Of a stretch of DNA of 50,672 nucleotides, positions 496-50,672 are shown piece by piece. This DNA is from a virus (taxonomy: Duplodnaviria > Caudoviricetes): positions 1 to 50,672 of the IMG/VR virus record IMGVR_UViG_3300044516_000053; one strand, written 5' to 3'. The notes below the pieces were generated by a model. It was not told the DNA's origin. It searched no databases and saw nothing but the letters and a program-made list of their open reading frames with translations. Within the stretch, counting starts at the first letter, position 1, and every line of letters begins with the position of its first letter. A program made the translations under genes and the position numbers.

Positions 496-673
496 CAGTT
501 GCCCATGCCGCCTCGGGTAGCTCGGCGGCTGGCATCTTCCCGTCCAGCTTGCGCGCAGATTTAAACGCAACAAGGGTATGGTAGGCAAACTTAGCTGCGC
601 GTCTTGCGTTGGGGTCCAAAGCCTCACTGTTCCACAACGTGTCGAGCCCGTACAGAACGTCATCTACGGTCAT
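467..673 (-). CDS. Hypothetical phage protein (MTVDDVLYG...)
   Basis: ATG at 673 is coupled (TGATG) to the stop of the upstream small gene and preceded by GGAGG. Confidence 0.6.
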   Translation of the reverse strand: MTVDDVLYGLDTLWNSEALDPNARRAAKFAYHTLVAFKSARKLDGKMPAAELPEAAWATDESRDVPAH

Positions 674-768
674 CAGGGCCTCCAGACAAACAGGTCCAAC
701 AGCAGGACGATCACGCACAACAGCATCACGATGCGCTCGACGCGCTCGACAGGGGTCCACGGGTTCAT
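673..768 (-). CDS. 31-aa single-TM peptide MNPWTPVERVERIVMLLCVIVLLLDLFVWRP
   Basis: Below the ORF-track cutoff. Strong SD (GGAGGTGCAGC-ATG), ATGA overlap with the upstream gene, hydrophobic core. Confidence 0.7.
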   Translation of the reverse strand: MNPWTPVERVERIVMLLCVIVLLLDLFVWRP

Positions 769-1106
769 GCTGCACCTCCCGCCTTGGCGATGGCATCAGC
801 AATCACCTGCGCGGCAGCCCGGCGCATCTCGGCAACCCTGCGGCATTGCGCTGCGCTGCCACGCATCCCGCGCTCATCATTTAGCCGGGCCAAAGAATCA
901 TCCTTCTCCGCGCAAGCTTGGACATGGGGCAGGGCGAGGCGCAGCGCAGCCAGCAGGTCAGGCGCAGCATTCATCAGGCGCAGGTCATCATAGGTAACGT
1001 CATTCAAAGGGATACGGGCGACAGGGTGCCCCTGCTCTGATTCAATCGACCAGTTGTAGGTCAGGGGCTTGGCGATCCACGGGCCGGGGGTATGGGCAAA
1101 TGCCAT
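765..1106 (-). CDS. Conserved phage protein with HTPGPW ... L(M/I)xAAPDLLxAL motifs
   Basis: HTPGPW at the N-terminus and RLMNAAPDLLAAL form a motif pair common in phage early regions. SD GGAG upstream of ATG 1106. Confidence 0.75.
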   Translation of the reverse strand: MAFAHTPGPWIAKPLTYNWSIESEQGHPVARIPLNDVTYDDLRLMNAAPDLLAALRLALPHVQACAEKDDSLARLNDERGMRGSAAQCRRVAEMRRAAAQVIADAIAKAGGAA

Positions 1107-1108
1107 CT

Positions 1109-1270
1109 TCAATCTCCGTTTAAATGAATACGTTGTTCCGCGAGCGCGAGCCAGCGGTCAAAGAACTCGCAGCCTGCATCGCAAAGCACGGGCACGTCGG
1201 CAAAGGGTGCAATGCAGAGCAGCGCGAGGTAGTTGACGAATTGGGAGTAGGCCTCCCCCTCGGTCCTCAT
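1109..1270 (-). CDS. Hypothetical 53-aa protein (MRTEGEAYSQFVNYLALLC...)
   Basis: Translated by hand. Begins at the GGGGGTGCAGCATGA junction and fills the gap between its neighbours. Confidence 0.55.
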   Translation of the reverse strand: MRTEGEAYSQFVNYLALLCIAPFADVPVLCDAGCEFFDRWLALAEQRIHLNGD

Positions 1271-1608
1271 GCTGCACCCCCAATCGAATCAGGCACCTCG
1301 ACCTCGTCTCCGAGTCGGGATGCGACATAGCAGCGCATCGCTGCGATGAGGGGAGTGGGGCCATCCTCAAACACCGTCATGAAGTGCGGGGCTGTAGCCT
1401 TGCTGGCGGTCCAGCCCGTGTCCTCATAGGTGCGGCGCACCGCAATCTCCTCCCGCTCAATGATCGGGCCACCTTGCGCCCAATCGTAGGAATACCCGCA
1501 CTCGTTACGGAAGTTCCGCCAAACCTCCTCGAAATTGATTTCGTAGTTAGCTCGGACAACCGCCCAATCAAGGGCGAGGTCTTTCAGTTCGCTGGTTTTG
1601 ATCTTCAT
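1267..1608 (-). CDS. DUF2591/NinX-like phage protein
   Basis: MKIKTSEL...LDWAV, YSxDWAQGGPIIERExI and GPTPLIAAMRCYVASRLGDEVEVP are typical of this family. Confidence 0.75.
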   Translation of the reverse strand: MKIKTSELKDLALDWAVVRANYEINFEEVWRNFRNECGYSYDWAQGGPIIEREEIAVRRTYEDTGWTASKATAPHFMTVFEDGPTPLIAAMRCYVASRLGDEVEVPDSIGGAA

Positions 1609-1796
1609 GCTGCACCTCCAGCGTGTTCTTCAATTTCCTCGACGTGTTCAATGTCCCAATAAGAATCAGAGACAGCAGTCGCGCCGCCGCGCTCGACCTT
1701 ATCCCATGCCATCCCTTTCGCGGTCTCCTCATCCTTGGCCTCGACAAAAACAGTGCAATAGCTGTAACGCACCAATGTAACTTGATAGCTCTTCAC
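1605..1796 (-). CDS. Small acidic phage protein (DpnD/PcfM-like pattern)
   Basis: MKSYQVTL...TVFVEAKDEETA pattern. SD AGGAGAG upstream of GTG. Confidence 0.6.
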   Translation of the reverse strand: MKSYQVTLVRYSYCTVFVEAKDEETAKGMAWDKVERGGATAVSDSYWDIEHVEEIEEHAGGAA

Positions 1797-1807
1797 GTTG
1801 TCTCTCC

Positions 1808-1838
1808 TAAAAAAGCACCCGGTATCCGACCGGGGGCG
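1808..1838 (-). terminator. Intrinsic terminator after the vWA gene
   Basis: Minus strand reads GCCCCCGGT-CGGAT-ACCGGGTGC followed by a T-run. Confidence 0.65.
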
Positions 1839-1844
1839 GGGCAG

Positions 1845-3470
1845 TCAGACTGCCAGCTTGATAGATTTAAACGAAGCAGACCCAAGGTCCGAGACGTTGT
1901 TTACCCTGACGCTCTGGGGGTAGACGCGAGACACGTCCAGACGGATGCCGATCCCCACAGTGGTGATGCCCATCGCCTCGCCAGCGTGGACCTGTTGGGA
2001 CGTGGCCTGCGTCTGTCCGCAGCCGTCCGTCAGGACAATCAGCACCTTGCGCTCCTCTGGTCGTTGGGCCAGCAGCTTGTGGGCGTAGCGCACCGCGAAA
2101 AAGTCATTGGTGCCACCAGAAGCGCTCACAGTGGACAGGGCCTCAATGCCCTTGGCCTTGCGGTCCGTCCAGTCTTTGACCACGCTTGTCACGGTGCCGA
2201 ACGATAGTACGCAGGTCTTGACCTGAGCCCGGTCCAACGTGTCCAGCAGGGCGGCGCAGCACTCGACGGCGGGGCCAAGCAGCCGATCACTTTCCATGGA
2301 CTCGGACACGTCCAGCAGGATGACCACCGCAGAATCGACACCGTCCACCTCGCTGCGGCGCTTGAACAGCTTGTCGCTGGTGCCGATGCGGGACAGGGAG
2401 TTAACGTCCACAGACCCGGCCTTGCGACGTAGACCGAACTCGACCCGGGCACTGTTGTCAAACAGGCGCTTGAGGTTGTAGCGCAGGGCACCGGGCACCG
2501 TCACGTCCACTTTGTGCTGCCCGTTGCCGACGTGGTAGCCCTTGCGGGACAGGCCAGTGACCTCGCAGTAGCTCCCATAGAACCCGCCCTTGCCCTCACC
2601 GTCCGGGGACTCGACAGCAGGCTCGACGGTGCGGTAGTCCTCATAGCCCGTAGGAGCCCTTGCAGGGCCGGGTTGGGGGGTAGGGCTACCCTTGCCCTTT
2701 TCATCGCCTCCTGCGTCCTTCTGGGGGTCTTCCTGACCCTCTCCCTCGCCACCGTCGCCCTCGCCACCTTCACCGTCGCCCTCGCCACCGTCGCCCTCGT
2801 CCGGGTTGCCGGGCTGCGGTTTAGGTCGCGGCTTGGGCTGCGGGTTGTCTGGCAGGGCCATCAGTTGGGACTCGACCCACTGCGCGATCTTCAGCGCGTC
2901 ATCACTGTTGGCGCACGATTTAAACTGAGCGGCGGCACCAGCAAAGATCACGTCCAGACCGGGGGCCAGCGGCACCTTGACGGCGGCGTGGTCCCGCAGG
3001 TAGACAGCGAGGGCGAACGGGTACTGCTCCGGGGCTGACCAGTCAGTCACCTCACGCAGGGCCTCGCTCACCATGCCACCGATCAGCGTGGTGAACAGGG
3101 ATTCGATGTTGCCAGTGAGCCCGGAGCGGATAGCGCGGCGCTCAATGTAGGCATCCTCGACTGCGTTGTGCAGTTGACGCAGGAGCGGGGTGCCATGCTT
3201 CGCGGCAGACAGGGACACCCAATGGGTGTACGCATGATGGCAAAGCTCATGGGCACCCATGCCACAGTAGCGCACCAGTGTCGCGTGATCGACGCGACTG
3301 TCATCCGCCACGTCCGCCAGCAGGATGGTCCCGCTCACGTCGATAGCGGCGGTCTGGATGCGCTTGGTCCACTCGACCCGAATGGGGGTCAGGTCAAGGG
3401 CGGTATTGACCTTGCCGAGAATTTCCTCGACGGCGGCGCGGAACTCGGAGCCAGAGTAAAAAGCTTTCAT
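1845..3470 (-). CDS. CobT-like protein: N-terminal HEXXH metallopeptidase-like domain, acidic Gly/Pro linker, C-terminal vWA
   Basis: AHELCH...HNAVEDAYIE, GEGDG linker repeats, MIDAS DVSES, GGTND, LIVLTDG. Likely start is ATG 3470 (MKAFYSG) with SD GAGG. Confidence 0.85.
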   Translation of the reverse strand: MKAFYSGSEFRAAVEEILGKVNTALDLTPIRVEWTKRIQTAAIDVSGTILLADVADDSRVDHATLVRYCGMGAHELCHHAYTHWVSLSAAKHGTPLLRQLHNAVEDAYIERRAIRSGLTGNIESLFTTLIGGMVSEALREVTDWSAPEQYPFALAVYLRDHAAVKVPLAPGLDVIFAGAAAQFKSCANSDDALKIAQWVESQLMALPDNPQPKPRPKPQPGNPDEGDGGEGDGEGGEGDGGEGEGQEDPQKDAGGDEKGKGSPTPQPGPARAPTGYEDYRTVEPAVESPDGEGKGGFYGSYCEVTGLSRKGYHVGNGQHKVDVTVPGALRYNLKRLFDNSARVEFGLRRKAGSVDVNSLSRIGTSDKLFKRRSEVDGVDSAVVILLDVSESMESDRLLGPAVECCAALLDTLDRAQVKTCVLSFGTVTSVVKDWTDRKAKGIEALSTVSASGGTNDFFAVRYAHKLLAQRPEERKVLIVLTDGCGQTQATSQQVHAGEAMGITTVGIGIRLDVSRVYPQSVRVNNVSDLGSASFKSIKLAV

Positions 3471-3478
3471 GATTGACC

Positions 3479-4879
3479 TCACAGATTTTTTGCGATGGTT
3501 TCGCGGGACAGGCAGGTTTCGAAGATGCCACGCAGGACGGCGTGGCACTCGGACGGTTGACGGGCCACGACAGCAGCCTCCCATGCGTCATCCGGGGGCA
3601 GGACACGCAGGGCACGGATGAAGGCCATCGCCGAACGAATCGACGGCGCGTCGGTGATCTCGGCAGTGGTCACCTTGGACCGGGCCACCACAATGGCGGC
3701 GTGGACGTGCCGGGCCAGTGCGGGGGAGCAGCCAGTGTGCTGCGCGAGGGCCTTGATCTCCTGATCAGCAGGCAGGAATTTAAACGCGATCACCCGGGCG
3801 AAGCGGTCAACCAGCGCCGAGTTTTGATTGCGCGTCCCGGCGTAGCGACCCGAGTCATCACCCGAACCGAACGTGTTATCGGCTGCGAAGCAGAGAACAC
3901 CGGGGGCGCGGACGTGCGGCTGGCCCCCGAACGACACGCAAGCTTTCGGTTCCAGAAAACCGTTCAAGGGTGCCAGTTCGCCGGGGTCTGCGTTGGTGAT
4001 CTCGTCCAGCAGGATCACGCTCGACGGGCAGGTGTACGCCAGCAAAAAGTCCTTCTTTTCAAAGACTGTCTCGCCGTCCTTCAGGCCCACCGCGCCGACG
4101 TATTCCTCCGCAGCCGTGAACTTGTGAAAGTTGATGCGTGTAAACGCACGTCCGGTCCGGGCTGCAAACTGCCGGGCGGTCTCCGACTTACCCGTGCCTT
4201 TGTCACCCCCGAACCAGAGGTTCTCGCCTGTCTGCTGAGACAGCAGCAGGTGACGCAGGATGCCCTCGGTCCAAATAAAGTCAGGGTCCACGGCGGGGGC
4301 CTGCGGGTGATTCCAAACCTCTACGGTCATCGGTGCGCCCGTCATATCCAGCACGTCGATGCCGAACACGTCCACGGCGGGGCAGGTCCGCACGACGTGG
4401 ACGGCGGACAGGTCCGCGACTGCGGTCTGAGCACCAGCGGCCTCGACTGCGGTCTTGAAGGGGGCGAATGCATCCGCGATGGCGCGGGTGACGGCGGCAT
4501 TGATCTCGTCGCGCTCGACTGCCGGGGTCTGGGCGGCAAGCTTGTCGGACAGGGTGTTGACCATCGCCGCGACGTTCGTCACCGAATCCTTCACCGTCTT
4601 GATTGCAGCGACTGCATCAAGGGCAATCGACTCCGCCCGGCCTGCGACAGCAGCAGCAGCCGCCACGGCGGCGGTGTCCTGCTTGGGGGCAGGGGCAGCA
4701 GGGGTAGCAGGCAGCACGTCCGCCACGGCGATGGCACCGGAATAGATGCGGTCAGCGAGCCACCTAGCGGCGGCCTGCTTGCTACCGCCAACCGAGCCAC
4801 CGAATCGGTTCAGAGTTGCGGTGAGGACGGGGGTCGGCAGGGCCGTGATTTGGGTGACTAGGGCGTCATGGGACAGCAT
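3479..4879 (-). CDS. MoxR/CbbQ/CobS-like AAA+ ATPase with N-terminal extension
   Basis: Walker A GDKGTGKS, Walker B ILLDEI, AADNT, NSALVDRF arginine finger, SIRS sensor II. Adjacent to its vWA partner. Confidence 0.9.
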   Translation of the reverse strand: MLSHDALVTQITALPTPVLTATLNRFGGSVGGSKQAAARWLADRIYSGAIAVADVLPATPAAPAPKQDTAAVAAAAAVAGRAESIALDAVAAIKTVKDSVTNVAAMVNTLSDKLAAQTPAVERDEINAAVTRAIADAFAPFKTAVEAAGAQTAVADLSAVHVVRTCPAVDVFGIDVLDMTGAPMTVEVWNHPQAPAVDPDFIWTEGILRHLLLSQQTGENLWFGGDKGTGKSETARQFAARTGRAFTRINFHKFTAAEEYVGAVGLKDGETVFEKKDFLLAYTCPSSVILLDEITNADPGELAPLNGFLEPKACVSFGGQPHVRAPGVLCFAADNTFGSGDDSGRYAGTRNQNSALVDRFARVIAFKFLPADQEIKALAQHTGCSPALARHVHAAIVVARSKVTTAEITDAPSIRSAMAFIRALRVLPPDDAWEAAVVARQPSECHAVLRGIFETCLSRETIAKNL

Positions 4880-4893
4880 GATTGTTCTCCGAT

Positions 4894-5481
4894 TTAAACG
4901 TTGTGAAGGGTGTCACCGCAGGGGCAGGTCGGCAGGCCAGCAGCGACCCACTTGGCAGTGGTGCGGACGGTGTACCCGCAGGACGGGCAGCAAAGCTTGA
5001 GCATCCGGGTCGGCTGGACCTTGGTCTCCGCGCCGGGCACTAGCTCGGCATGGGCATAGTCCCCGAGGGCGGTCAGTGTGGCGGCATGGTCGGACGCAAA
5101 GGTGCTGTTGCCCTTCGTGGACTTCCACGCCTGCTTCCCGCCACCGCAGGCAACCAGACCCATGTCGGCGGCGACCCGCTGAAAGGCGATGCCGTGATTC
5201 ATGGCCCCGGCAGTGGCATGGCAAAGCTCATGCACCAGCACCTCCAGCACCGCCAGAGGGTTTGCCAGCACCGGGCTGATCATAATTTCGATGGTCTTAT
5301 CCGCCGAGGCAGTGCTGGCCCAACATTGACCAATGGCCTTGGACCGACGGGCGTGGAGCGGGAAACCGCAGGTCACGCGGATCGCCAGCGGCAGGGGTTT
5401 GTTCAGCGCGTCGAAGGACGGACGCAGCAGGTCAGTGGCGGCAGTGAGCCACGCCTCACGGGTATGGTGAATCAGGGACAT
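4894..5481 (-). CDS. SprT-like zinc metallopeptidase with C-terminal Zn ribbon
   Basis: VLVHELCH...HGIAF motif and C-terminal CPSCG...CPCG. Confidence 0.8.
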   Translation of the reverse strand: MSLIHHTREAWLTAATDLLRPSFDALNKPLPLAIRVTCGFPLHARRSKAIGQCWASTASADKTIEIMISPVLANPLAVLEVLVHELCHATAGAMNHGIAFQRVAADMGLVACGGGKQAWKSTKGNSTFASDHAATLTALGDYAHAELVPGAETKVQPTRMLKLCCPSCGYTVRTTAKWVAAGLPTCPCGDTLHNV

Positions 5482-5502
5482 AGTTTTCTCCGGGGGTTGT
5501 TG

Positions 5503-5817
5503 TCAGGCGAGGGTTGCGCGGGGGGTATGCAGACCGTGCGCGGTATGGGCGCAGGCCCGGGCGGCGGCGAGGTATGCACCTGCTTCGCTTGTGTACAGGC
5601 AGGGCTTGCCGTTGCTGTAGCGGAGGGTCCAGACATAGTCGGGCTTCCCGTCCACGTTGCGGCGGGTTGCCTGCGCGATCCATCGCTCGGACTGATCGGC
5701 GGCAGCTTGGGCCTGCTGCAAGGCATTCGGGTCATTGGCCCGTAGGTGTTGCAGGATCACGTTGTCGTTCAGCAGCACCATCAGCGCGTTTCTCAGGGCG
5801 GTTTCCGTTTTGGTCAT
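5503..5817 (-). CDS. Hypothetical phage protein (MTKTETALRN...)
   Basis: SD CCGGAGAAC upstream of ATG 5817. Confidence 0.65.
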   Translation of the reverse strand: MTKTETALRNALMVLLNDNVILQHLRANDPNALQQAQAAADQSERWIAQATRRNVDGKPDYVWTLRYSNGKPCLYTSEAGAYLAAARACAHTAHGLHTPRATLA

Positions 5818-5846
5818 AGGTTCTCCGGTTGGTTGAAGGGGGGACA

Positions 5847-5883
5847 GCACTCCAATGCCCTCTGGGGGAGGGCATCAGGCTGC
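5847..5883 (-). repeat. 37-nt structured repeat, copy 1
   Basis: Minus strand GCAGCCTGATGC-CCTC-CCCCA-GAGG-GCATTGGAGTGC. Intergenic; paralog at 6164-6200. Confidence 0.85.
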
Positions 5884-5885
5884 GG

Positions 5886-6137
5886 TCAGACGTTGCCGAC
5901 GTGGGCTGCGTCGGATAGCAGGAATGCGGCGGAGCCGCTTCCGGTCCAGCCGCCAGCGAGGGGGCCATGCCAGCCGAGTACATCGCACAGTTCGATGGCA
6001 GCCTCCGCATAAGCGGCGATGCCGCTCAGTTCGTTCGGGAAGGGGATGGTGACACCCTTGAAGGTGCCGCACGCCGCCTTTAGTCGGGCAGGTTGCGTGG
6101 CAGTAGAGGGCAGGTACTTGACGGTGATAGCTTCCAC
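5886..6137 (-). CDS. Hypothetical phage protein (MEAITVKYLPSTATQPARLKA...)
   Basis: GTG at 6137 with SD CCGGAGAAC. First gene of the leftward operon. Confidence 0.65.
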   Translation of the reverse strand: MEAITVKYLPSTATQPARLKAACGTFKGVTIPFPNELSGIAAYAEAAIELCDVLGWHGPLAGGWTGSGSAAFLLSDAAHVGNV

Positions 6138-6163
6138 AGTGTTCTCCGGGTTACGTGCGGGAT

Positions 6164-6200
6164 GCACTCCAATGCGTCCCAGAGGGGCGCATCAGGCTGC
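6164..6200 (-). repeat. 37-nt structured repeat, copy 2
   Basis: Minus strand GCAGCCTGATGC-GCCCC-TCT-GGGAC-GCATTGGAGTGC. The 12-nt flanks are identical to copy 1; the core differs but still pairs. Confidence 0.85.
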
Positions 6201-6444
6201 AAGCAGCTCTTACATATGTAAGCGGATGTTTTGTTGTCTACCGCGCCAGTAGCACGGTGCAGGTCGTATCACCTGCCTGAATTGAACCCGTTGCCGGGGA
6301 AGACTTGCGTCTTTTACCTCCTCAGACCGACCATATACAGGGCCGTTCTGTACCGGACTCCACCGGGGGGTCCAGCACTGAAGGGGCTGGCACCTGTAGG
6401 TTCGATCACCTTTGCCTCACTAGCTAGTGCTAGGGCATGGCGTG

Positions 6445-6474
6445 ACTGTAGCACTAGTTGCCCGTGTAAAGCAA
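6445..6474 (-). promoter_or_regulatory. Candidate sigma70 promoter for the leftward operon
   Basis: Minus strand TTGCTT-N18-TACAGT with extended -10 TG (TGcTACAGT). Confidence 0.45.
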
Positions 6475-6647
6475 TACCCGAGTGGAATGTGGGGGAATAG
6501 CCCGGGACGGCTAGGGACTGTGACTCTCTATATAGAGGGCAACGGTCACCAGTGGGAGGCGCTGAAAGGGGTTCAGGCGGGGGAGGTATAGGGTCAGTTC
6601 AGACAGGGCCTGCAAGGCCCGGTTGCAATAGGAAAGTTCTAGGTAGG

Positions 6648-6698
6648 TTATCCACAGGGGTGTGGATAAGATCAGAGTTATCCACAGGGTGTGGACAA
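6648..6698. promoter_or_regulatory. Cluster of four DnaA boxes (candidate replication origin)
   Basis: TTATCCACA 6648-6656, TGTGGATAA 6661-6669, TTATCCACA 6678-6686, TGTGGACAA 6690-6698 (1 mismatch). Confidence 0.8.
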
Positions 6699-6838
6699 GT
6701 TTTGTAGTACTTGTTTATTGCAGACAGGGTTTAAAGCGACGAACGGAAGCGGGGTAAGGGGTAGGGTAGTCCGGAGGCTGATAACCTGTTACGATGCGAA
6801 CGTCGTGTACGTTTACACAGTATGGAAGGAATCACAGT

Positions 6839-7495
6839 ATGACGGAGCGGAGCGAGACCCGGGACCGACTGAGGGCGACCAAAGACGAGTATCTAGCAGC
6901 ACTGGAGAGGGCTGCGGAGGATGACGATTTAAACGGGTATGACGGGGGCCCGGAACTGAGCGAAGCGGAACGGTTAGCCCTTCGCGCAGAACCTCCAGTA
7001 ATGAGAGCCGATGGGAGAGTAAGAGGATCAGAGATACCACGTCCAAGGCCACTGACAAGCAGCCAGATAGAGTTCACTAAGGGGCTGATACAGGGGAAGA
7101 CAATGCGTCAGGCCTACCGAGACGCATACCCCAACGCCAAGGGCGACGATAGGACGATCACCGCTGCGGCGTACAGGGTAAGCAGAGACCCAAGGGTGCA
7201 GAAGAGTCTTCAGGACGCATGGGGCGAGACAGTGGAAGTGCTGGCGGAGGACGTGAGTGCCACGAAGCGGTACGTACTGAAAGAGTTGCTTGCACTCAGC
7301 AAAGCAGGCAAGCAGGAAGGGTCTCGGTTGAAAGCACTGGAGTTGATGGGCAGAGCCGCTGGCATGTTCCAGCAGCAGCCAGAAGCGAAGGAGGCGGCAG
7401 TGTCACCAGAGACGCTACGCAGAGAACTGGCTGGACACTTGAAGTTGCTGGACAACGTCAAGCCGATCAGCAAGGCGCAGGTCAGGGAGGGTTAG
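6839..7495 (+). CDS. terS: Terminase small subunit
   Basis: LTSSQIEF..GLIQGKTMRQAYRDAY...AAAYRVSRDPRVQ HTH pattern and RLKALELMG. Upstream of terL; SD GGAAGGA before ATG 6839. Confidence 0.75.
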   Translation: MTERSETRDRLRATKDEYLAALERAAEDDDLNGYDGGPELSEAERLALRAEPPVMRADGRVRGSEIPRPRPLTSSQIEFTKGLIQGKTMRQAYRDAYPNAKGDDRTITAAAYRVSRDPRVQKSLQDAWGETVEVLAEDVSATKRYVLKELLALSKAGKQEGSRLKALELMGRAAGMFQQQPEAKEAAVSPETLRRELAGHLKLLDNVKPISKAQVREG

Positions 7496-7710
7496 CCCCT
7501 CTACGGTCATCAGCGTTTACACGGGCGGAGTGGGCATCAGGTTTGCCGCTGGCGGCGACCCACCGCCCCCCGACCCCCCGCTGGGGCCGCTTACCTCCCC
7601 CTCCCATGCTTACGCTGTAATCCACTCTTCCCATCACATTCCCATAAACACCCCCCCATCACCCGCAAATCACTGACCCCCCGGGGTATATATATTTTGA
7701 TTTACACCCC

Positions 7711-7739
7711 TTGCGAACGTTCGGATTGTGATTTAAACT
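7711..7739 (+). promoter_or_regulatory. Candidate sigma70 promoter overlapping palindrome CGAACGTTCG
   Basis: TTGCGA-N17-TAAACT, palindrome at 7714-7723, ATG at 7746. Confidence 0.45.
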
Positions 7740-7745
7740 AGAGAT

Positions 7746-7943
7746 ATGGACGACATCATTGATTATGCGAGGCCAACTCTTCTTGCCGAGAAGGCTCTCA
7801 AGGACATGCACAACGCAGTGATTGAGAAGAGGTATGCCAATGCCAAGGAGCATGCCTTGGAGGCTTTGACGCAGTTGAGGCTTGCGTATCAGGCTATTTG
7901 TGAGGAGCAGAAGAATGTACGAAAAGCATCAACTGGTGCTTGA
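7746..7943 (+). CDS. Hypothetical helical phage protein
   Basis: 65-aa ORF in operon orientation, overlapping the next gene. Confidence 0.65.
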   Translation: MDDIIDYARPTLLAEKALKDMHNAVIEKRYANAKEHALEALTQLRLAYQAICEEQKNVRKASTGA

Positions 7944-9653: not shown

Positions 9654-9656
9654 ATC

Positions 9657-10391: not shown

Positions 10392-10402
10392 AGGAAAACA
10401 AC

Positions 10403-13483: not shown

Positions 13484-13495
13484 GGAGTGATTTAA

Positions 13496-39150: not shown

Positions 39151-39158
39151 AAACCCTT

Positions 39159-39800: not shown

Positions 39801-39828
39801 CCACTAACCCTTCTTCCGTGAGGCCCCA

Positions 39829-42047: not shown

Positions 42048-44287
42048 TCATCCCGAGCAAGCATAGCGGTTACGGTGAAGGTGGACGCCTTACCTCCACT
42101 CGTCGGGTGTATGACAGCGGCGGCGGTGGTGCTTCACAAACCCAGATCACCGATCTCCCAGACTGGGCAAAGCCGACCGCGCAGAAGCTCCTTGGTCAGA
42201 CATCTGCACTGACATTAGGGCTGGATAAGGAGGGCAAGCCCCTCAATCCATATCAGCAATACGAAGGCCAGCGCACCGCACAATTTACACCGCTGCAACA
42301 GCAGGCGTATGGCAATGCGTATGGCATGGACGCAGGCCCCCAAGGGTTTGCCCAGAACATTGGTACGTACATGTCGCCGTACCAGCAGAACGTCATTGAC
42401 CGGGAGAAGATGGAGGCCGCTCGCGCCTCCCAGTTGCTAGGTCAGGAACAACAAGCTCGGGCTACCCAAGCAGGTGCGTTTGGCGGCTATCGTGAAGGTA
42501 TCCAACGCGCAGAGCGTGAGCGGGGTCTTCGTTCTCAGTTGCAGGACATTCAGGCCCGTGGCTCTCAGGCAGCGTATGACCGCGCTGCGGATCAGTTCCG
42601 TTCTGGCATCACCCAACAGCTTGCCGTCGGGCAACAGCAGGCCCAGTTTGGTGGGCAGCAGCAGCAGACTGTTCAGCAGATGCTGGATCAAAGGTATCAG
42701 GACTTCTTGAACGAGAAGAAGTACCCGTATCAGCAGCTTGAGTTCATGTCGAACATCCTGCGTGGCACCCCCATGGGCGGGGCCAGCACGCTCTATGGTG
42801 GCGCTGGTAGCTCTATGGGTCAGCTTACTGGCCTTGGCACTGCTCTTGCTGGGCTGTTTAGCAAGGCTGAAGGCGGCATGGTGGATTCCTACGCCGAGGG
42901 CGGAGTCACTGATGTAAACAACGTCCGGTCTATTCTTGACAAGCTCTCTGACCAGCAGCTACAGGAAGCCCAGAAGGCTGCTATGGCTCGCGGGGACGCA
43001 GAGCAACTCCAACTCATCGCAGCAGAGATGGCACAACGTGCCTCCATGCGCACCGGGATTGCCTCTGGCATCACCGATGAGTTTGCCGACAGCATGGAAG
43101 AGGGAATGGCTCACGGTGGTATCGTGGCCTTTGCTAATGGTGGCTCCAATGATGTTGATCCTTTGTCTCAATTCAGCGGGCTAGACCCGGCTGGTCTTGC
43201 GGCAGATGAGGTTCGCAGGCAATCTATTATTCAAGCTCGCAAAAAAGAAGAAGAAGCTCAGAAGCAAGAGTTTCTAAGGCAGGCTGCCCCCGAGGTTGCT
43301 GCGCGGTTGGAAAAAGAGCGTGCGGCAAAAGAACCCAAGGCTGCTGCCCCCGTGGCGAAAGCAGAGGCTGCTCCCAAGAAAAACGAGCCAAAAGTACAAC
43401 CCAAGGCCAAGAAGGAAGTGGTTGCTGCTGTAAAGGAAGTTGCCAAGGAAACTGGCGTTCCTGAGAGCACCCTGACTCAAGAGGCCATGACCCTGTTTAA
43501 CCAGTTGCAGGGTATGTCTAACCCTAAACTGGACAAGTTAAACGCTCTGATTGCACAGCAGGCGAGCCGGGCGGAAGAAATCAAGGGTCGCGGCCTGTCC
43601 GATGCCCTGATGAACTTTGGCTTCACCATGGCTGCCGAAGCGTCTAAACCCGGTGCTAGGTTCCTTGAAAGCGCCAGCCGGGCAGCGCCTGAAATCACCC
43701 GGACCATGGGTGAGAACCAGAAGGCTGTACAGGCTGCGCAGGATGCGTTTAACAAGGCGCAGATTGAGCAGCTTCGCAATGAGATCACCGGCGGCGGGCA
43801 GGACATGCGCACGTCCTTGACCACCGCGCAGGCCATCATGCGTGATCGTCTGGATCAGAAGAGGATGGCGCAAGATGCAGACTACCGCAACCGCTCTCTT
43901 GCAATGCGGGCGGCAGAAGTGGGAGCCAGAGAACCCAACGTCTATGACCTTGCAAGAAAAATCATGGCTGACCCGAAATTCACGGGTTCTGAGCGTGAGG
44001 CTTTGGCTGAAGCCTATGCCATGAAGACCGGGACAGCCATGCGGGCGGAATCTTCGGCACGGTTGAAGTACGGCGAGGCAGTCAGAGAAATAGATAAAAG
44101 AATGGAAGTGTTCTTGGCCGCTGCAAAGACTCCAGCAGAGAAAGCTGCTGTGCAAGATCAAATTAAAAAGGCAAAAGATTCTGTTGCTCAGGCATACGGA
44201 ATTTCTCCCGGTGTCAGTACACTATCCCCCGCCGAGATATCTCAAGTACAGGCAGACATCAGCAAATACCTGAACCCCGGGAAGTAA
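42044..44287 (+). CDS. DNA ejection/pilot protein
   Basis: YMSPYQQNVI, AGAFGG.R, Gln-rich helices, several xAxGG motifs, coiled-coil C-terminal half. Confidence 0.7.
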   Translation: MIIPSKHSGYGEGGRLTSTRRVYDSGGGGASQTQITDLPDWAKPTAQKLLGQTSALTLGLDKEGKPLNPYQQYEGQRTAQFTPLQQQAYGNAYGMDAGPQGFAQNIGTYMSPYQQNVIDREKMEAARASQLLGQEQQARATQAGAFGGYREGIQRAERERGLRSQLQDIQARGSQAAYDRAADQFRSGITQQLAVGQQQAQFGGQQQQTVQQMLDQRYQDFLNEKKYPYQQLEFMSNILRGTPMGGASTLYGGAGSSMGQLTGLGTALAGLFSKAEGGMVDSYAEGGVTDVNNVRSILDKLSDQQLQEAQKAAMARGDAEQLQLIAAEMAQRASMRTGIASGITDEFADSMEEGMAHGGIVAFANGGSNDVDPLSQFSGLDPAGLAADEVRRQSIIQARKKEEEAQKQEFLRQAAPEVAARLEKERAAKEPKAAAPVAKAEAAPKKNEPKVQPKAKKEVVAAVKEVAKETGVPESTLTQEAMTLFNQLQGMSNPKLDKLNALIAQQASRAEEIKGRGLSDALMNFGFTMAAEASKPGARFLESASRAAPEITRTMGENQKAVQAAQDAFNKAQIEQLRNEITGGGQDMRTSLTTAQAIMRDRLDQKRMAQDADYRNRSLAMRAAEVGAREPNVYDLARKIMADPKFTGSEREALAEAYAMKTGTAMRAESSARLKYGEAVREIDKRMEVFLAAAKTPAEKAAVQDQIKKAKDSVAQAYGISPGVSTLSPAEISQVQADISKYLNPGK

Positions 44288-44288
44288 T

Positions 44289-47200
44289 ATGGAACTGAGG
44301 CAAGCCATCCAAGCCTTCCGTAACGCAGAGGCGGCAGGCGATGTTGAGGCGGCATCAAGGTTGGCCCGGTTCATTGATCAGAACCTTAACCAAGAACCGC
44401 AACCCGCAGCCCCAGCCCCCGAGTCGGGCGTAATTTCTTCCACCATAGGTGGATTTAAACGACTTGGTGCAGGGCTTGAGACGGCGGCAGGGTCAATCGT
44501 TGATCCTCAAGGCGCTGCCCAGCGTGGTTTACAGCGACAGCAAGAGCTTTCTGAGCAGTATGCTCCGGGCGCAAGCCTTGACCGCGTTAAACAGGCGTAC
44601 GAGAAGAGTGGCCTTCTGTCTGCTGCCGGGGAGGCAATTAGCCAAATCCCCTCTGCTTTTGCAGAGCAGCTACCCAACATCGCTGCCACCATTGCTGGCG
44701 GTAAAGCTGGTGCCATGGCGGGAACCGCTATCGCCCCCGGTATTGGCACTGTTGTGGGTGGCTTAACTGGTGCTGCGGTGCCATCCTTGCTGCAACTGTA
44801 CGGTTCTAACCTAGTCCGTCAGGCAGAAGAAACCCCGCAGGACATCTCCCGCCTATCTGCCTTGGGGGCAGCCGTGCCCGGGACAGCGCTTGAGGTTGCG
44901 TCTACGGCTATCCCCCTTGGCCGTACATTCATTGGCAAGATTCTTGGCCCCGAGGCTGAGAAGATGCTGGCCCGTGGGACAAACGCTTCTTTGGAGAGAG
45001 CAGCCAAGGAATCGGTCGCCACAAGCCTTGTGCGTGGTGGCGGTGTAGGCGCTCTTGCGGAAATCCCTACCGAGGTAACCCAGCAGATGCTGGAGCGCCT
45101 GCAAGCTGGCCTCCCCCTGACTACCGATGATGCTCTTGCAGAGTACGCTGAAGCAGCCTACGGGGCTACCTTGGTTGGCACTCCGTTTGGCGCTATCGCT
45201 CGCACCGCCGGTCGTTCTTCTGTTCAACAAGAATATGCTGCACTGAAGCAACAAGAGGACGCCCGTCTGGCGGTCTCCGAGGAAGAGCTTGCCCAGCGTT
45301 TCCCCGACACCTTGCCCGGCGGTTTCAAGATTGAGCAGGAAGAGCTTGGCCGTGAGATGGGGCCGCAGGGCTACAACATCATGGCAGAGGGCCGTGAGCA
45401 GCCCCTGTCGGTGGTGGATACCGAAGAAGAGGCCACGGCAAAACTTGAGGCCCTAACCAAGATCAGGGCGGAAGAGCGGGAAAACCTTCTCAAGGAAGAA
45501 GGGAAGATCAACGCCGCAATCCAGAAGGCGCAGCAAAATCTGGAACGTCTGGAGGCGACCGAGCAGACCGACACGGACGAGTACAGGAGCCTGAAGGCTC
45601 AGTTGCCGACCATGATGGATGAGTCGGCGCAGAAGATCAAAGACACATACGACAAGATCGAAGCCCTGTCCAAGCCGCTATCTGTTACCCCGTTTGGCGA
45701 GGTCGAGCGTGTAAACAGCCAGTTCAAACTCTTTGGCCCCGACAGTCAGCAGGTTGGCGTGTTTAAAACACGAGAGCAGGCCGAGGGTGCCATTGAACAA
45801 AGCATTGGCGAGGACACGTTTAAACAGGCCAAAGAAAACCAAGCGGCTGCCAAAGAGCTTTACAAAACCTTTGTCCCCCAGATGCGCAAGTTCGGTCTGG
45901 GTGATGTGGGTCTGAACATCGTTGATCGAATTGAGAATGGCGCGGGTGGCGCTTACCTCGACAAGTTGATCCGGGTGTCGCTGGAGGATTCCAATCCTGT
46001 CCAGACCATGCGCCATGAGTCCCTTCACGCCCTGAAGGACTTGGGCTTCTTCACGCCCCAGCAATGGAAGGCTCTGGAGCGGCAAGCCAAGAAGACTTGG
46101 ATTGAAGACCTGAAAAAGATTTCTCAAGAAGAGGGTAAGAGCCGCCACGATGCCTACATTGAGTTGTTCACTAAAGAGGCGCAGGACAAGGGCCTCGAAG
46201 GGAAAGAGCTTGATGAGTACGTCAACAACAGTCTGATTGAAGAGGCTATTGCTGACGCCTTTGGTGCCTACGACAAGGGGGCCAAGCCGCCCCCGGGCAT
46301 GATTGCCGCCCTCTACCGCAAGATCAAGAACTTCTTTGCCAACCTGTCTCAGGCTCTGCGTGGTGCAGGGTTCCAGTCTGCGGATGATATTTTCCAAGCC
46401 GTCGAGCGCGGCGAGTTGAAGCCTGCCGCCAAGGCCAAGCCCGAAGCGAAGCAAGAAGCCAAGCCCGGGAAAGCAGCGCCCAAGGTTAAGGATATAGAGA
46501 CACAAACCATGGAGGAGCGCTTGAGTCTCCTCCGTGCTGCAAATCCTGATGAGATTGAAATCTCTACTCAGAACCCGCAGGGCAAAACTCGCAAGTACGA
46601 CCCCATCACCCAAATGCTTTCAATTGATAGCGATGCTATCAAAGAGGCGATGGAGACCAACAAGGAACTTTCCGGGCGGATCACGCAAGCCATCTCTGAG
46701 TATGGCTTCGTCCCGAAGGACACAGCCCCCGAGGACGTGATTGATGTCTTCAAGAAGAACATCATCAACAACCTTGTCTTCTTGCACAACAAGGTTCCCA
46801 AGGAAATCAGGGAGCGCAGCAAACTTTGGTATGACGGCGCTAATGTGATTGCCGACCAAATGGCAGATCAGTACGACATGTCCCTGCGCCAAGTGGCGGG
46901 GATCATGGCTGCCATGTCTCCGCAAAAGGATTGGTTCCAGAACGTGTCTATGGCTGAACGTGCCATTGACATCCTTACCAATGAAGGCGATTCCGTCTGG
47001 ACCCCGGAGATGCTGCAATACGCAGACAGCTACGTCAAAGAAACCGACGACCGGAAAGAACGCGAGAAGCGTCAAGAACACCGCGACAAGATTCAGAAGA
47101 TTGCCGACCGTGGTGTTTCCTTGAAGGACATGAACGCAAAGGATGCTGCTGCGTTTATCCGCGCATTTGATGAGGCGTTTAACTCGCGTCAGTACCGGAT

Positions 47201-50200
47201 CGTTACCCCCGAGGGCGGGTTTGGTGACCTAGTCAGGAACAATGACGGCACTCCATCGACCATGATGTGGTCTACCTATGGGCCGATTGAAAAGACGGTC
47301 AATATTTTCCGTGACGGAAGCCGCACCAACGTCAGCCAGCAGCTTGGCTTCGAACACAAAATCCGCTCCTTCTACAACAACATTGCAGCACCTAACAGTG
47401 AAATTGGGCACGTAACCATTGATACCCATGCTGTTGCTGCTGCGTTGTTTGAGGCTCTTGCCGGAACCGATACAGAGGTAATCCAGAATTTCGGCGGTAC
47501 TGGCAAGTCAGATGTTCTTGGCGTTGGCGGCACCTACGGCCTGATTGCCGATGCCTACCGTGATGCAGCCAAGCAGCTTGGTTTAAAGCCACGCGAGCTC
47601 CAGTCCATTACTTGGGAAGCTGTGCGAGGTCTCTTCTCTGAAGAAATGAAGGCTTCTTTGAAGCCCAAGGTCCGCGCAGAATGGGCCAAGTACAAGAATG
47701 GCGATCAGACATTTAACGAGACCCGTGAAAATATCCTGAAGATTGCAGGGCAACAAGAGAAGCTTAACGAGCCTGACTGGGTTGGCTCTGGCGAGGGCCA
47801 GTCTGTTGATGAGGGTGGAACCAGCTATGACAAGGACTTCGTGCCTGAAGGCGGGGTTCGCCTCCGCGCAGCACGAGAACTCAAAGAGCGGGCGATTATC
47901 AACTTGTCTGCTGCGTCGGAGCGTGCAGCGCTTCCCGGCATCAATGAACTTTACAACCGCGCTCGCAACGGGGATGTAGACGCATACAAGCTACTTCAGA
48001 ATGTTGCAGGAAACTCTCTGAAGTATCTGCTCAACGACACCAACGCTCGCATCAAGGTGAAGCCCGTCAAGGGCGTTTACATGAGCAACCGCGAGCCTGC
48101 CATTGTTGCAATGGTGACGTTCAAAGAATCGGAGTCGCAAGATGTTCTTGCTAGGATTGAGCGGTTCGCAGAAAATTATGAGCAGGAGCAAATTCATGTC
48201 CGCGTTGGCACGAACAAGAAACCCGGCCATGATTTTGGAGATGGTTCTTACGCAACCCCTTCGTACACCATCAAGCTCCAAAAAGAACTGACAGATGCCG
48301 AGATTAACGACCTGATTGAACAGACGGGTCTTCCGGCGTTCTCAGTTGAAGATGACACGATAACAACCTACTGGGTGGCACCAAATGAGAGAGAACAAGG
48401 AAGTCAAGGGTTCAATGAGTTTGCGGAAAGAGTCAAGCAACTCAATGCCTTGGTTGGAGAAAGCGGTTCAAGACCTCAACAGAGAACTGAACGCCTCTAC
48501 GTCTACGGATCAGGATTCGGAGCAAGAATCTCATATGAAAGAATACAAAGCGACCTTCCTGCCAAGGAAGCGCCAGACCTAAACACCCCCCGGATGATTG
48601 CGGGCTATCTGTTCCGCAACCCGGTGAAGGTGTTTAAACAGAAGTCTCTAACGCTTGAACAAAAGAAGCAGCAGAGGCTTCTGGCTCAGGTCTTTAATGA
48701 TCTTCCTGTAAATGATCTGAGGAATCCGCTTGTCCGGCAGGCGTATGAAGCTTTGGCGCGTGCGCTAGAGGATCAATTTAAAGTTCTCCCAATCAAGGTT
48801 GAACTACAGACACAAAAATATCGACAGGGCCAGAAAATCCCCAAGGGGTTTAAAGTTGGCGACTTAGTGCCGCCTTACAGCAACAACTCCTCCGAGATGA
48901 GGAGGGACATTTCTGAGAACAACCACCTTCTGGTGTACCCGACAAGCCCGGAAACTTTTGGACCAGAGGGCAGCGATTTCTCTAACCATCCGCTACTCAA
49001 GCGGTCTGACATAACAGATGTAAACGGCACAAAGCTTCTGTACAACGACCTGCTGCGTGCGGTGCATGACTACTATGCACACGGTATGGCAGAGGCGCAG
49101 TTTGGACCTGCTGGCGAATACACTGCGTGGGCTAACCACATGGCTGCTACCGCCGACCCCATGGCTCGGTGGGCGCTAACGGCAGAGACTCGGTCTCAGA
49201 ATGCATGGCAAAACTTCACCGCAGGGGCGGAGCAACTTGCTGTTGCTGATCGTCCGTATGCAGATCAAAAAGCTGCACTGCCCCCGGTCAACTATCTCTT
49301 GACCGGAGATAAGGATGTTGATGCCCCTGTCTTGGAGATGATTGGCTCCCTTGATGGCAAGCAGCTTCTCGGCAGTCTCAAAGAGCGCAGCAAGACAGCG
49401 CCTGAAGTTCGGAAAGCCTTGGAAAAGGTTATGCCTGCCAAGGAGGCAAAGCTAAGCCTGCGCCGTACTGAAACCAAGGAGTTCAAGGACTGGCTTGGCA
49501 GGTCTAAGATCGTCAACAAAGACGGTACGCCAATGGTCATGTACCACGGGCTGGCAAAAGACACTACAGACTTCACCCGCAAGACCAAGCGCGGCGCACC
49601 CATCTTCCTGACGGACGATCCAACCTTTGCAGAGACGTTTGCCGCAGACAGCTACGAAGCTGTCGCTCGCTACCCTGAAAAGTATCTGTCCAAAGAACAG
49701 ATTGCTGACGGGGTAAAGAGAGCCATCGCCGCGATCAAGAAGGACTACGGCAAGGACTCTCTCGGCAAGGAGATGATTGAGAGCCTGCAAACGGGCAACC
49801 TTAAAGATGCAACCCCTGAAGCAAGGGAGTACATCCAGAAGGAACTCATTAGCCTGCTTCCCACTGGCCCTCACATCATGCCCCTGTACGTCAGGGCAGA
49901 GAATCCGTTTGATTACGATAACCAAAGCCATGTTGGAAAGGTTGTTCTTGAGTTAAACAAAACAACAGACTCAAATGGCCGGATGCTTGGCAGCAAGATG
50001 TTCAGGGACATTGAGAATGGCAAATGGGATGCCATTGAAGATGGCTTTGTTCAGGACGCCATCAAAGCGCTTGGGTTTGACTCCTTCTATGTAGAAGAGC
50101 AGGGCCGCAAGAACCTTGCTGTTTACGAACCCAATCAGGTCAAGTCTGCCACTGGCAACGTCGGAACCTACAGCCTTGATTCAAATGATGTGCGGTACAG

Positions 50201-50672
50201 CCTGCGCAACGTAGCATTCCCGACCGCCAAAGAGGCGACGGAAGCTGCTGATGCTGTTGAGGTGCCCGACACCATTGAATTTAAACGGTACATCGCTGGT
50301 AACCAATGGGTAGACGAAGAGGGCAAGGCCAAGAAGTTCTACCACGCCACCACCTCCAACTTCTTTGAGTTCAACGAGGGAGTTATCTACCTCTCTGACA
50401 CCGCAGAAGAAGCAGAGAAGTGGGGCAGGATTGCAGAGGACCGTCTGCGTGAGCAGGTTTACAGGGCTCTGAACAAGGACGAGAAGCTGCCCTTCTTCCA
50501 GAAGGCCGTCGATGAAGCTGTCTCCAACGACAAGATAACGCAGGCTCAGGGCGAGAGGTTCATGCGTGACGCTGGCCGCAAGATTCCTGAGTTCGGTAGC
50601 TACGACCTCATCAAGAAGGAGATGGACGAGGCCCTGCTGTCTCTGGCTCCTGAGCGCATGAAGATCATGCCG
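44289..50672 (+). CDS. Large polyvalent ejection protein (>2128 aa, truncated): TM-like N-terminus, HEXXH zincin, glycosylase-like domain, HDxxxH domain, two ART-PolyVal-like domains
   Basis: ATG 44289 (MELRQAIQAF). Absent from the ORF track, consistent with no stop before the edge. In-frame motifs: MRHESLHAL (46008), KLWYDG..MSPQKDW..KIRSFYNNI..VTIDTH, RAVHDYYAHG, FKDW...VMYHG..IFLTD..NQVKSATGN, and a second KFYHAT..IYLSD. Confidence 0.85.
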   Translation, partial: MELRQAIQAFRNAEAAGDVEAASRLARFIDQNLNQEPQPAAPAPESGVISSTIGGFKRLGAGLETAAGSIVDPQGAAQRGLQRQQELSEQYAPGASLDRVKQAYEKSGLLSAAGEAISQIPSAFAEQLPNIAATIAGGKAGAMAGTAIAPGIGTVVGGLTGAAVPSLLQLYGSNLVRQAEETPQDISRLSALGAAVPGTALEVASTAIPLGRTFIGKILGPEAEKMLARGTNASLERAAKESVATSLVRGGGVGALAEIPTEVTQQMLERLQAGLPLTTDDALAEYAEAAYGATLVGTPFGAIARTAGRSSVQQEYAALKQQEDARLAVSEEELAQRFPDTLPGGFKIEQEELGREMGPQGYNIMAEGREQPLSVVDTEEEATAKLEALTKIRAEERENLLKEEGKINAAIQKAQQNLERLEATEQTDTDEYRSLKAQLPTMMDESAQKIKDTYDKIEALSKPLSVTPFGEVERVNSQFKLFGPDSQQVGVFKTREQAEGAIEQSIGEDTFKQAKENQAAAKELYKTFVPQMRKFGLGDVGLNIVDRIENGAGGAYLDKLIRVSLEDSNPVQTMRHESLHALKDLGFFTPQQWKALERQAKKTWIEDLKKISQEEGKSRHDAYIELFTKEAQDKGLEGKELDEYVNNSLIEEAIADAFGAYDKGAKPPPGMIAALYRKIKNFFANLSQALRGAGFQSADDIFQAVERGELKPAAKAKPEAKQEAKPGKAAPKVKDIETQTMEERLSLLRAANPDEIEISTQNPQGKTRKYDPITQMLSIDSDAIKEAMETNKELSGRITQAISEYGFVPKDTAPEDVIDVFKKNIINNLVFLHNKVPKEIRERSKLWYDGANVIADQMADQYDMSLRQVAGIMAAMSPQKDWFQNVSMAERAIDILTNEGDSVWTPEMLQYADSYVKETDDRKEREKRQEHRDKIQKIADRGVSLKDMNAKDAAAFIRAFDEAFNSRQYRIVTPEGGFGDLVRNNDGTPSTMMWSTYGPIEKTVNIFRDGSRTNVSQQLGFEHKIRSFYNNIAAPNSEIGHVTIDTHAVAAALFEALAGTDTEVIQNFGGTGKSDVLGVGGTYGLIADAYRDAAKQLGLKPRELQSITWEAVRGLFSEEMKASLKPKVRAEWAKYKNGDQTFNETRENILKIAGQQEKLNEPDWVGSGEGQSVDEGGTSYDKDFVPEGGVRLRAARELKERAIINLSAASERAALPGINELYNRARNGDVDAYKLLQNVAGNSLKYLLNDTNARIKVKPVKGVYMSNREPAIVAMVTFKESESQDVLARIERFAENYEQEQIHVRVGTNKKPGHDFGDGSYATPSYTIKLQKELTDAEINDLIEQTGLPAFSVEDDTITTYWVAPNEREQGSQGFNEFAERVKQLNALVGESGSRPQQRTERLYVYGSGFGARISYERIQSDLPAKEAPDLNTPRMIAGYLFRNPVKVFKQKSLTLEQKKQQRLLAQVFNDLPVNDLRNPLVRQAYEALARALEDQFKVLPIKVELQTQKYRQGQKIPKGFKVGDLVPPYSNNSSEMRRDISENNHLLVYPTSPETFGPEGSDFSNHPLLKRSDITDVNGTKLLYNDLLRAVHDYYAHGMAEAQFGPAGEYTAWANHMAATADPMARWALTAETRSQNAWQNFTAGAEQLAVADRPYADQKAALPPVNYLLTGDKDVDAPVLEMIGSLDGKQLLGSLKERSKTAPEVRKALEKVMPAKEAKLSLRRTETKEFKDWLGRSKIVNKDGTPMVMYHGLAKDTTDFTRKTKRGAPIFLTDDPTFAETFAADSYEAVARYPEKYLSKEQIADGVKRAIAAIKKDYGKDSLGKEMIESLQTGNLKDATPEAREYIQKELISLLPTGPHIMPLYVRAENPFDYDNQSHVGKVVLELNKTTDSNGRMLGSKMFRDIENGKWDAIEDGFVQDAIKALGFDSFYVEEQGRKNLAVYEPNQVKSATGNVGTYSLDSNDVRYSLRNVAFPTAKEATEAADAVEVPDTIEFKRYIAGNQWVDEEGKAKKFYHATTSNFFEFNEGVIYLSDTAEEAEKWGRIAEDRLREQVYRALNKDEKLPFFQKAVDEAVSNDKITQAQGERFMRDAGRKIPEFGSYDLIKKEMDEALLSLAPERMKIMP

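Follow-up and report, generated by a model that had tools for sequence, protein, structure and literature searches.

Why does a short AT-rich word recur throughout the DNA of a tailed phage, inside genes as well as between them, and which protein would read it? The question is raised by the 50,672-base virus contig IMGVR_UViG_3300044516_000053 (Duplodnaviria; Caudoviricetes), which was analyzed over its whole length and is called the window below. An original prediction, made from the letters alone, had described a word built on TTTAAA as a selected dispersed DNA signal. The word is a real, selected signal: it is enriched, shows no strand bias, co-occurs with a gene for a SprT-like protein and with the signature of that protein's zinc ribbon, and lies at promoter-like positions that include the gene's own. 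The explanation we favor, with a probability of roughly 0.5, is that the word forms an operator array which the phage itself encodes, which would be read by the SprT-like protein and which would keep the phage genes quiet.

A dispersed word under selection

TTTAAA was counted 42 times in the window, as had been stated, and 34 of the 42 copies had a G before or a C after them, also as claimed; the earlier composition-only estimate of about 5 copies agreed with the recomputed expectation of 5.5. The 10-mer GATTTAAACG or its complement was found at all eight places named before (Table 1), and the related GTTTACAC/GTGTAAAC at 4138, 6811, 7515, 20389, 21506, 29449 (previously given as 29450), 36836 and 45709. 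For the left arm a site spacing of 0.6-1.1 kb had been reported, and the measured gaps were 559-1114 bp.

The excess persisted after a codon-preserving shuffle, in which synonymous codons were permuted within each gene (500 rounds). TTTAAA occurred 33 times in genes vs. 7.6 expected (maximum 14); these figures come from a set of 46 genes, two of them with wrong coordinates, and automatic gene sets gave 28 vs. 7.2 and 31 vs. 7.9. The 10-mer was present 6 times in genes vs. 0.06 and GTTTACAC/GTGTAAAC 7 times vs. 0.67, and AAATTT, TTATAA, AATATT and TTTTAA were not enriched in the same shuffle of the window genes. TTTAAA was also the most over-represented 6-bp palindrome in the window (42 vs. 4.8; median ratio of 6-bp palindromes 0.35). 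The sites reshape codon and even amino-acid use: TTT-AAA coded 41 of the 66 Phe-Lys pairs of the window and its nearest long relative, G008, taken together (0.62 vs. 0.13 expected), and Phe-Lys pairs themselves were over-represented 1.58-fold. The claim that TTT-AAA is forced on genes preferring TTC-AAG held in part, as AAG was preferred (493 vs. 220) and an overall preference for TTC was absent (TTT 278, TTC 264).

The true unit is RT(T/G)TAAAY, extending over 8-10 bp as Y-R-T-(T/G)-T-A-A-A-Y-R; its specificity is graded, and positions beyond it carry no information. Its most frequent forms in the window were GTTTAAAT/ATTTAAAC (21), GTGTAAAC/GTTTACAC (8), ATTTACAC/GTGTAAAT (7) and GTTTAAAC (5), and the site density was 1.67 per kb in bases 1-15000 and 0.76 per kb beyond. 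The transcribed strand was not favored (183 sites sense vs. 162 antisense), and polarity about the origin was inconsistent among 14 genomes (88/102 over the first half after it, 148/121 over the second); we therefore infer that the word is read on double-stranded DNA. Even spacing was found neither across the whole window (coefficient of variation, CV, of the gaps 1.07 vs. 0.97 at random) nor in seven near-complete relatives. A codon or frameshift artefact was rejected because both open frames were used equally (61 vs. 66) and no strand bias was present. Methylation at GTWWAC, which we take to be the motif concerned, was rejected as well, since GTTAAC and GTATAC were not enriched in the codon shuffle.

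Co-occurrence with a SprT-like gene and its zinc ribbon

The candidate reader (Table 1) matched phrog_6361 (E 8e-39) and, below the cut-off, the Pfam SprT-like family (E 2.9e-5). It is a full-length homologue of a phage and plasmid SprT-like family with 164 matches in cultured phages, 161 of which cover at least 80% of the query, and 74 in plasmids, and it has the family's HEXXH motif (HELCH, amino acids 84-88) and C-terminal cysteine ribbon. The ribbon (amino acids 156-192) follows the pattern Q-x-T-R-M-x-K..CPxCGY-x-V-R-x-T-x-K-W..CPC, with CPSC..CPC in the window copy.

Within the window's clade, counted only at loci with at least 3 kb upstream of terS, the word was present at 42 of the 43 loci with the SprT-like gene and at none of the five without it, which represent two lineages; the exception (L152) carries the variant GTAAAC (24 vs. 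3.8). All 80 loci retrieved by the SprT-like gene, every one from the window's clade, were enriched in the word. By a rule of at least 2.5 × expected + 1 over seven words, which is lenient for short loci, enrichment was seen at 79 of 80 terL loci, 75 of 80 ribbon-helix-helix (RHH) loci and 1 of 24 distant terL loci, the last being L170 (5 vs. 1.5). The word was absent from four cultured outgroups. Its variants follow lineages, with GTTTAAAC in most, GTTTAAAT in the window's clade and TGTAAAC in a GC-rich clade.

The word has disappeared from one nested lineage (G264, L131, L233). Its contigs together still hold terS, the LexA-like gene, the DnaA boxes, the primase and an HNH gene, with RHH, Sak and exonuclease genes also kept in some contigs, but the lineage is without the RusA-like, SprT-like, AAA+ and VWA genes. 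The early arm of G264 holds an ArdC-like gene (L188, 4697-5458; ArdcN, E 5e-12), and the ArdcN domain gave no match in the window's SprT-like protein. G264 also has a different recombination module. At a second word-less locus, L074 (1870-2160), terS is followed by a tandem repeat array, and the 1.3 kb upstream contain no SprT-like gene. The AAA+/VWA pair, directly after the SprT-like gene, is kept in all word-bearing complete genomes except G265, which keeps only the SprT ribbon and shows a weak excess of ATTTAAA (16 vs. 5.8, maximum 10); because G265 lacks both AAA+ and VWA, these genes are not required for the word. In G268 the VWA gene is split into two open reading frames (L204, 15030-16799).

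Beyond the clade, 21 named records (19 phages and 2 plasmids from two phyla) were hand-picked for spread from the phage and plasmid matches. The ribbon Q-x-T-R-M..R-x-T-x-K-W was intact in 14 of them, and ten of these hold 14-41 sites (expectation below 1, or control 0). Observed counts against a Markov expectation were 19/0.04 in Caron, 20/0.10 in Yang, 41/0.05 in LazerLemon, 14/0.24 in 4A, 17/0.28 in R5C, 19/0.84 in a Magnetospira plasmid, 7/0.37 in Mica, 5/2.0 in ECO1230-10 and 2/0.36 in pBSY17_4. Honk held 33 sites, Zeta1847 22, Pan1 16, GardenState 16 and Persinger 4, with a reversed-pattern control of 0. All seven records with a degenerate ribbon, which represent two lineages, hold 0-1 sites (CN1 and Franklin22 1 each; Quenya, Eden, Armstrong, BAjuniper and Epa43 0).

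The HEXXH motif was kept in the five degenerate-ribbon records in which it was inspected, and it is lost in G009, G266, G267, L060 and L152, where ribbon and word stay. HEXXH is dispensable, and proteolysis is probably not the core function of the SprT-like protein. A site lies within 100 bp of the SprT-like gene start in nine of the 14 intact-ribbon records and within 400 bp in three more; a site near its own gene start is the usual layout of an autoregulated DNA-binding protein.

A host-wide signal was rejected: YGTKTAAACR did not exceed its reversed control in 250 of the 251 Burkholderiales genomes examined, the host of the window itself not being assigned. The lone exception (G078) is AT-rich, with 32% GC in one 3-kb locus.

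Sites at promoter-like positions

A one-mismatch site at 6464-6471 overlaps the -35 element of the putative early promoter, and in six of seven near-complete relatives a full site lies in the spacer of this promoter. At the putative promoter of the LexA-like/terL operon one site (7700) lies upstream of the -35 and another (7731) covers the -10, and sites at 6730 (GGTTTAAAG) and 6811 stand between the DnaA boxes and terS. Sites recur across the clade at three such positions: in the spacer of the leftward early promoter, on the -10 of the terL-operon promoter and in the gap that separates the DnaA boxes from terS. Of 694 sites counted, 228 were not wholly within coding sequence, compared with 80 of 354 for AT-rich control words. 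Individual sites in coding DNA are old, one terL site being common to 70 of 89 distinct proteins.

Table 1. Coordinates of the word, its candidate reader and associated features in the window
Feature	Position	Strand	Remarks
Word array RT(T/G)TAAAY / RTTTACAY	383..50286	.	52 sites; from codon shuffles and site list
GATTTAAACG copies	558..567, 1864, 4891, 6926, 11765, 44452	+	
GATTTAAACG copies	10143, 30812	-	
10-mer site	4891..4900	.	overlaps SprT-like stop codon, just before ribosome-binding site of AAA+ gene
VWA-domain gene	1845..3470	-	lost together with SprT-like gene in word-less lineage
MoxR-type AAA+ gene	3479..4879	-	lost together with SprT-like gene in word-less lineage
SprT-like protein, candidate reader	4894..5481	-	195 amino acids; zincin-like domain, linker, C-terminal zinc ribbon
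Zinc-ribbon coding part	4897..5016	-	ribbon signature, not HEXXH, co-varies with word
Putative sigma70-like early promoter, arm holding SprT-like gene	6445..6474	-	by eye: TTGCTT, 18 bp, TG-C-TACAGT
DnaA-box-like 9-mers, likely origin	6648..6698	.	four, before terS; clade-conserved, 2-7 boxes per genome
Putative sigma70-like promoter, LexA-like/terL operon	7700..7739	+	by eye: TTGCGA at 7711, 17 bp, TAAACT at 7734

Predicted structure of the SprT-like protein

The AlphaFold2 model of the monomer (pLDDT 84, pTM 0.70) comprised a zincin-like domain and a small ribbon, with an ill-defined linker between them. A sequence search of the PDB with the SprT alignment gave no match at E ≤ 1, and Foldseek returned nothing at E ≤ 0.001 for the model; its top rows, all weak, were SPRTN (6MDW, E 0.023), abylysin, CapP, IrrE and small ribosomal chains over short alignments. 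The homodimer model scored 0.68, compared with 0.00 for the best of three controls, and its runs shared 92% or more of their contacts, at a pLDDT of 85 or above. The mark that it passed was reached by 20 of 30 solved homodimers and by 1 of 23 monomers. The modeled interface is formed by residues 37-45, 54-73, 143-150 and 168-187, and several of these do not vary in the alignment, which would explain a fold that outlasts catalysis. The modeling supports a predicted homodimer built through the protease-like domain, which would fit a two-fold reader of a near-palindrome.

The phage and further features of the window

The window covers most of the ∼60-kb genome of a freshwater phage related to HTVC023P and encodes terS, a LexA-like winged helix-turn-helix (wHTH) protein, terL, portal, GroES, capsid, adaptor, endolysin and giant ejection proteins. 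Its TerL is 77-100% identical to 80 IMG/VR loci and has its nearest cultured phages in the HTVC023P group (50-59% identity); megablast of window bases 1-25000 against cultured phages gave no match. Three terL contigs occurred in metagenome-assembled genomes, one of Burkholderiales and two unrelated, which assigns no host to the window. Near-complete relatives measure 55-66 kb and have additional primase-helicase, Sak, exonuclease, RusA-like and RHH genes; ∼10 kb of this arm is missing from the window. Neither a DNA polymerase nor an integrase was found among the scanned proteins of these relatives. The DnaA-box cluster is absent from G265 and the outgroups. Its presence in the clade, together with the polymerase and integrase not being found, suggests that replication may be host-initiated and possibly plasmid-like.

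Several smaller features were recorded. The LexA-type DNA-binding domain (7915-8145) is without a C-terminal domain and overlaps the terL start, and a conserved GAACGTTC at 7715 in the promoter of this gene may be the LexA-like protein's own site. CACTCCAATGC is repeated at 5848 and 6165, followed by a GC-rich hairpin-like stretch, before the small early genes, also in relatives. Four copies of CTACGGTCAT lie on one strand at 664, 4321, 7501 and 30038 (0.08 expected on both strands). The giant ejection protein, incomplete at the window end (44289-50672), contains DUF7178 and two ART-PolyVal domains, and the version of the relatives ends in LPD38. A second over-represented signal in the coding DNA of the window is CGCAGG/CCTGCG (93 vs. 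44 after codon shuffle, maximum 53), and GGCAGA was over-represented after the same treatment in G264 (95 vs. 36) and G002 (68 vs. 34); both could be a Chi-like host signal. GGCGGTGG, which we take to be the Caulobacter chi, was modestly enriched in G265 (20 vs. 13) and L111 (HTVC023P; 11 vs. 4.7). Avoidance of 6-bp palindromes is strong throughout the window and affects most of them (for example CTGCAG 0 vs. 26, CAGCTG 0 vs. 27.5, CGGCCG 0 vs. 29).

Function of the array and alternative readers

We have good confidence that an early-expressed SprT-like dimer binds the word. Two zinc ribbons would let the homodimer recognize the near-palindrome, and transcription would be damped wherever the dimer is bound. 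It may act on its own early promoter as an autorepressor, and repress or roadblock at the terS/origin and terL promoters and inside genes; with ∼50 further sites occupied, the genome would be quiet in a lysogen-like state. This state would be non-integrated, given the DnaA-box cluster and the search that found no integrase. The main text of a preprint describes the cluster AZ Arthrobacter phages as temperate without a known repressor, names the SprT-like protein as a candidate and reports that a truncated SprT-like allele of a cluster AZ phage goes with clear plaques (bioRxiv 10.1101/2025.05.26.655371).

A number of points weigh against the operator array. About two thirds of the sites are inside genes. 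pBSY17_4 has an intact ribbon yet only 2 sites, and ECO1230-10 is not clearly enriched despite its intact ribbon. The residues of the ribbon do not explain which variant a phage uses: GTTTAAAT goes with the window's KLCC..VRTT ribbon but also with a KAVC..IRLT ribbon (G269/L276), and G010, L124 and L128 combine class-A-like ribbons with TGTAAAC. The named-record contrasts, drawn from hand-picked records, reduce to about four lineages, and the even spacing in six of these records is not needed for promoter control. A single word shared across phyla would not make immunity specific, in contrast to the repressor systems known so far. The AZ truncation, in the phage Liebe, hits the protease-like domain and is accompanied by three further changes (bioRxiv 10.1101/2025.05.26.655371).

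The main rival, which we regard as possible though rather unlikely, keeps the same SprT-like reader and has it coat incoming phage or plasmid DNA every 1-4 kb against tracking host enzymes (type I restriction, exonuclease-helicases, silencers), acting either as a shield or as a protease anchored at the sites; those at promoters would merely set the reader's own level. The ArdC-like gene in the same early arm of the word-less G264 speaks for such a coat, as does the report that ArdC, a zincin that binds DNA, exerts its antirestriction effect without needing protease activity (PMC7213743). The same word is carried by a mobilizable plasmid, the best fold matches, weak as they are, were SPRTN 6MDW, CapP and IrrE, and the genome avoids most 6-bp palindromes, which argues for strong restriction pressure. 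Sites are more evenly spaced than at random in six named records (CV 0.44-0.62 vs. 0.90-0.96, P 0.000-0.057), but not in the window and the seven near-complete relatives. The protein must be made after entry and so could not guard the first minutes unless it is packaged, the CN1 homologue is labeled 'antirestriction protein' in RefSeq without having an array, and the clear/turbid plaque pair points to lysogeny. Tentatively, gene and word might also be seen as a portable self-marking module, a small gene paired with a universal 8-bp word, for which the codons of any phage or plasmid could make room by evolution. The dimer would dock every 1-4 kb, its zincin domains would clear or block tracking host proteins, and the element would tell its own genome from the host's by sequence, not by methylation.

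Readers other than the SprT-like protein appear less plausible. It is quite improbable that another phage protein (RHH, LexA-like wHTH, TerS, RusA-like resolvase, AAA+/VWA) reads the word and the SprT-like gene merely co-travels. The RusA-like, AAA+ and VWA genes were lost along with the word in the G264 lineage and the LexA-like gene follows a promoter with a site on its -10, but five of the 80 RHH loci lack the word, the RusA core hardly changes between word variants and also occurs in the word-less MinM2, and the phages of Actinobacteria and Proteobacteria and the plasmid were found via the SprT-like gene alone, without being screened for the others. The LexA-like protein and TerS, which the original prediction had proposed as binders, both persist in the word-less lineage (G264, L131), and the recognition helix of the former does not predict the word variant. 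The LexA-like wHTH, RHH, TerS, HNH-like and RusA-like proteins and the primase zinc domain were rejected as readers, being kept in word-less lineages or not co-varying with the word. The further proposals of a programmed nick site (as in T5 or phiKMV-like phages, where the motif marks breaks in one strand of virion DNA), a packaging or ejection signal or a phage methyltransferase target seem very doubtful: sites do cluster near terS and the likely origin, but strand bias and a consistent switch about the origin are both missing, specificity is graded and not sharp, and the array also occurs on a plasmid. No methyltransferase is conserved; there was none among the 62 open reading frames of the window, which is without ∼10 kb of the genome, and relatives gave 3 sporadic matches among 139 representative proteins of at least 100 amino acids. 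Least probable of all, with hardly any weight, is a host regulator, nucleoid protein or methyltransferase that the phage titrates or exploits. The word does fit GT-N-TA-N-AC, presumably the pattern of HutC/GntR operators, but the Burkholderiales genomes showed no excess, phages infecting Actinobacteria and Proteobacteria share the word, and among phages of a single host (M. foliorum) the state of the ribbon varies. The dispersed signal and the phage protein binding site of the original prediction are therefore retained; its named binders and the methyltransferase are not.

If the SprT-like protein does read the word, a DNA target would be available for a widespread phage and plasmid family annotated only as 'SprT-like protease', and a zincin scaffold with a zinc ribbon would be a kind of sequence-specific DNA reader. 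For the AZ phages a natural clear/turbid pair exists, and Yang, the one AZ genome counted here, carries 20 of the sites. Were the protective coat true instead, mobile DNA would have a novel means of self-marking. The window contributes the shifted variant GTTTAAAT, the nested loss of the word with an ArdC-like gene in the same arm, and the dimer model; its analysis adds two lineages in which ribbon decay and word loss coincide.

Comparison with known systems

The zincins SPRTN/Spartan, Wss1, IrrE and CapP resemble the N-terminal domain weakly in fold (best Foldseek E 0.023, 6MDW). They are DNA-activated proteases with no known sequence-specific site; in the SprT-like family HEXXH has repeatedly disappeared, and the ribbon co-varies with a specific word. 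ArdC of plasmid R388 attaches to single-stranded DNA irrespective of its sequence, carries its domains in the reverse order and has no site array (PMC7213743). Like HIP1 and the alternate highly iterated palindromes (HIPs) of cyanobacteria, the word is an 8-bp palindrome iterated through coding DNA with lineage-specific alternates; HIPs, in contrast, are GC-rich, chromosomal and tied to a cognate methyltransferase (PMC4390886). The word, with no conserved methyltransferase, is not a HIP, and its candidate reader is not ArdC. It also differs from polar signals of the Chi/KOPS type, having no consistent strand polarity relative to replication.

A related candidate is Lizalica gp46, a SprT-like protease of cluster AZ Arthrobacter phages (bioRxiv 10.1101/2025.05.26.655371). 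The main text of that preprint expects a Spartan-like repair protease and names no binding site, and 'TAAAC', 'operator' and 'stoperator' do not occur in it. SprT-like peptidases of jumbo phages are mentioned in a review as possible anti-host proteases. A literature search, which did not extend to the majority of subscription papers or to the supplementary files of the AZ preprint, turned up no paper that connects the word with a SprT-like protein.

The closest functional parallel is provided by the stoperators of cluster A mycobacteriophages (L5, Bxb1), where one phage protein has 20-30 or more sites across the genome, a few in the early promoter and most not associated with promoters (PMC6550527). 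In that system the bound repressor stops elongation and confers immunity. The window resembles this arrangement in its genome-wide sites, some of them at promoter-like positions. Cluster A stoperators are 13 bp long, asymmetric, oriented with transcription and phage-specific, with heteroimmunity (PMC6550527), whereas the word of the window is 8-10 bp long, near-palindromic and unoriented, its family is shared across phyla, and ribbon residues do not predict the variant. The candidate reader, a zincin-like domain with a zinc ribbon, is also of another kind. The array likely works like the mycobacteriophage stoperators, yet stands outside that family in length, symmetry, orientation and the absence of a phage-specific word.

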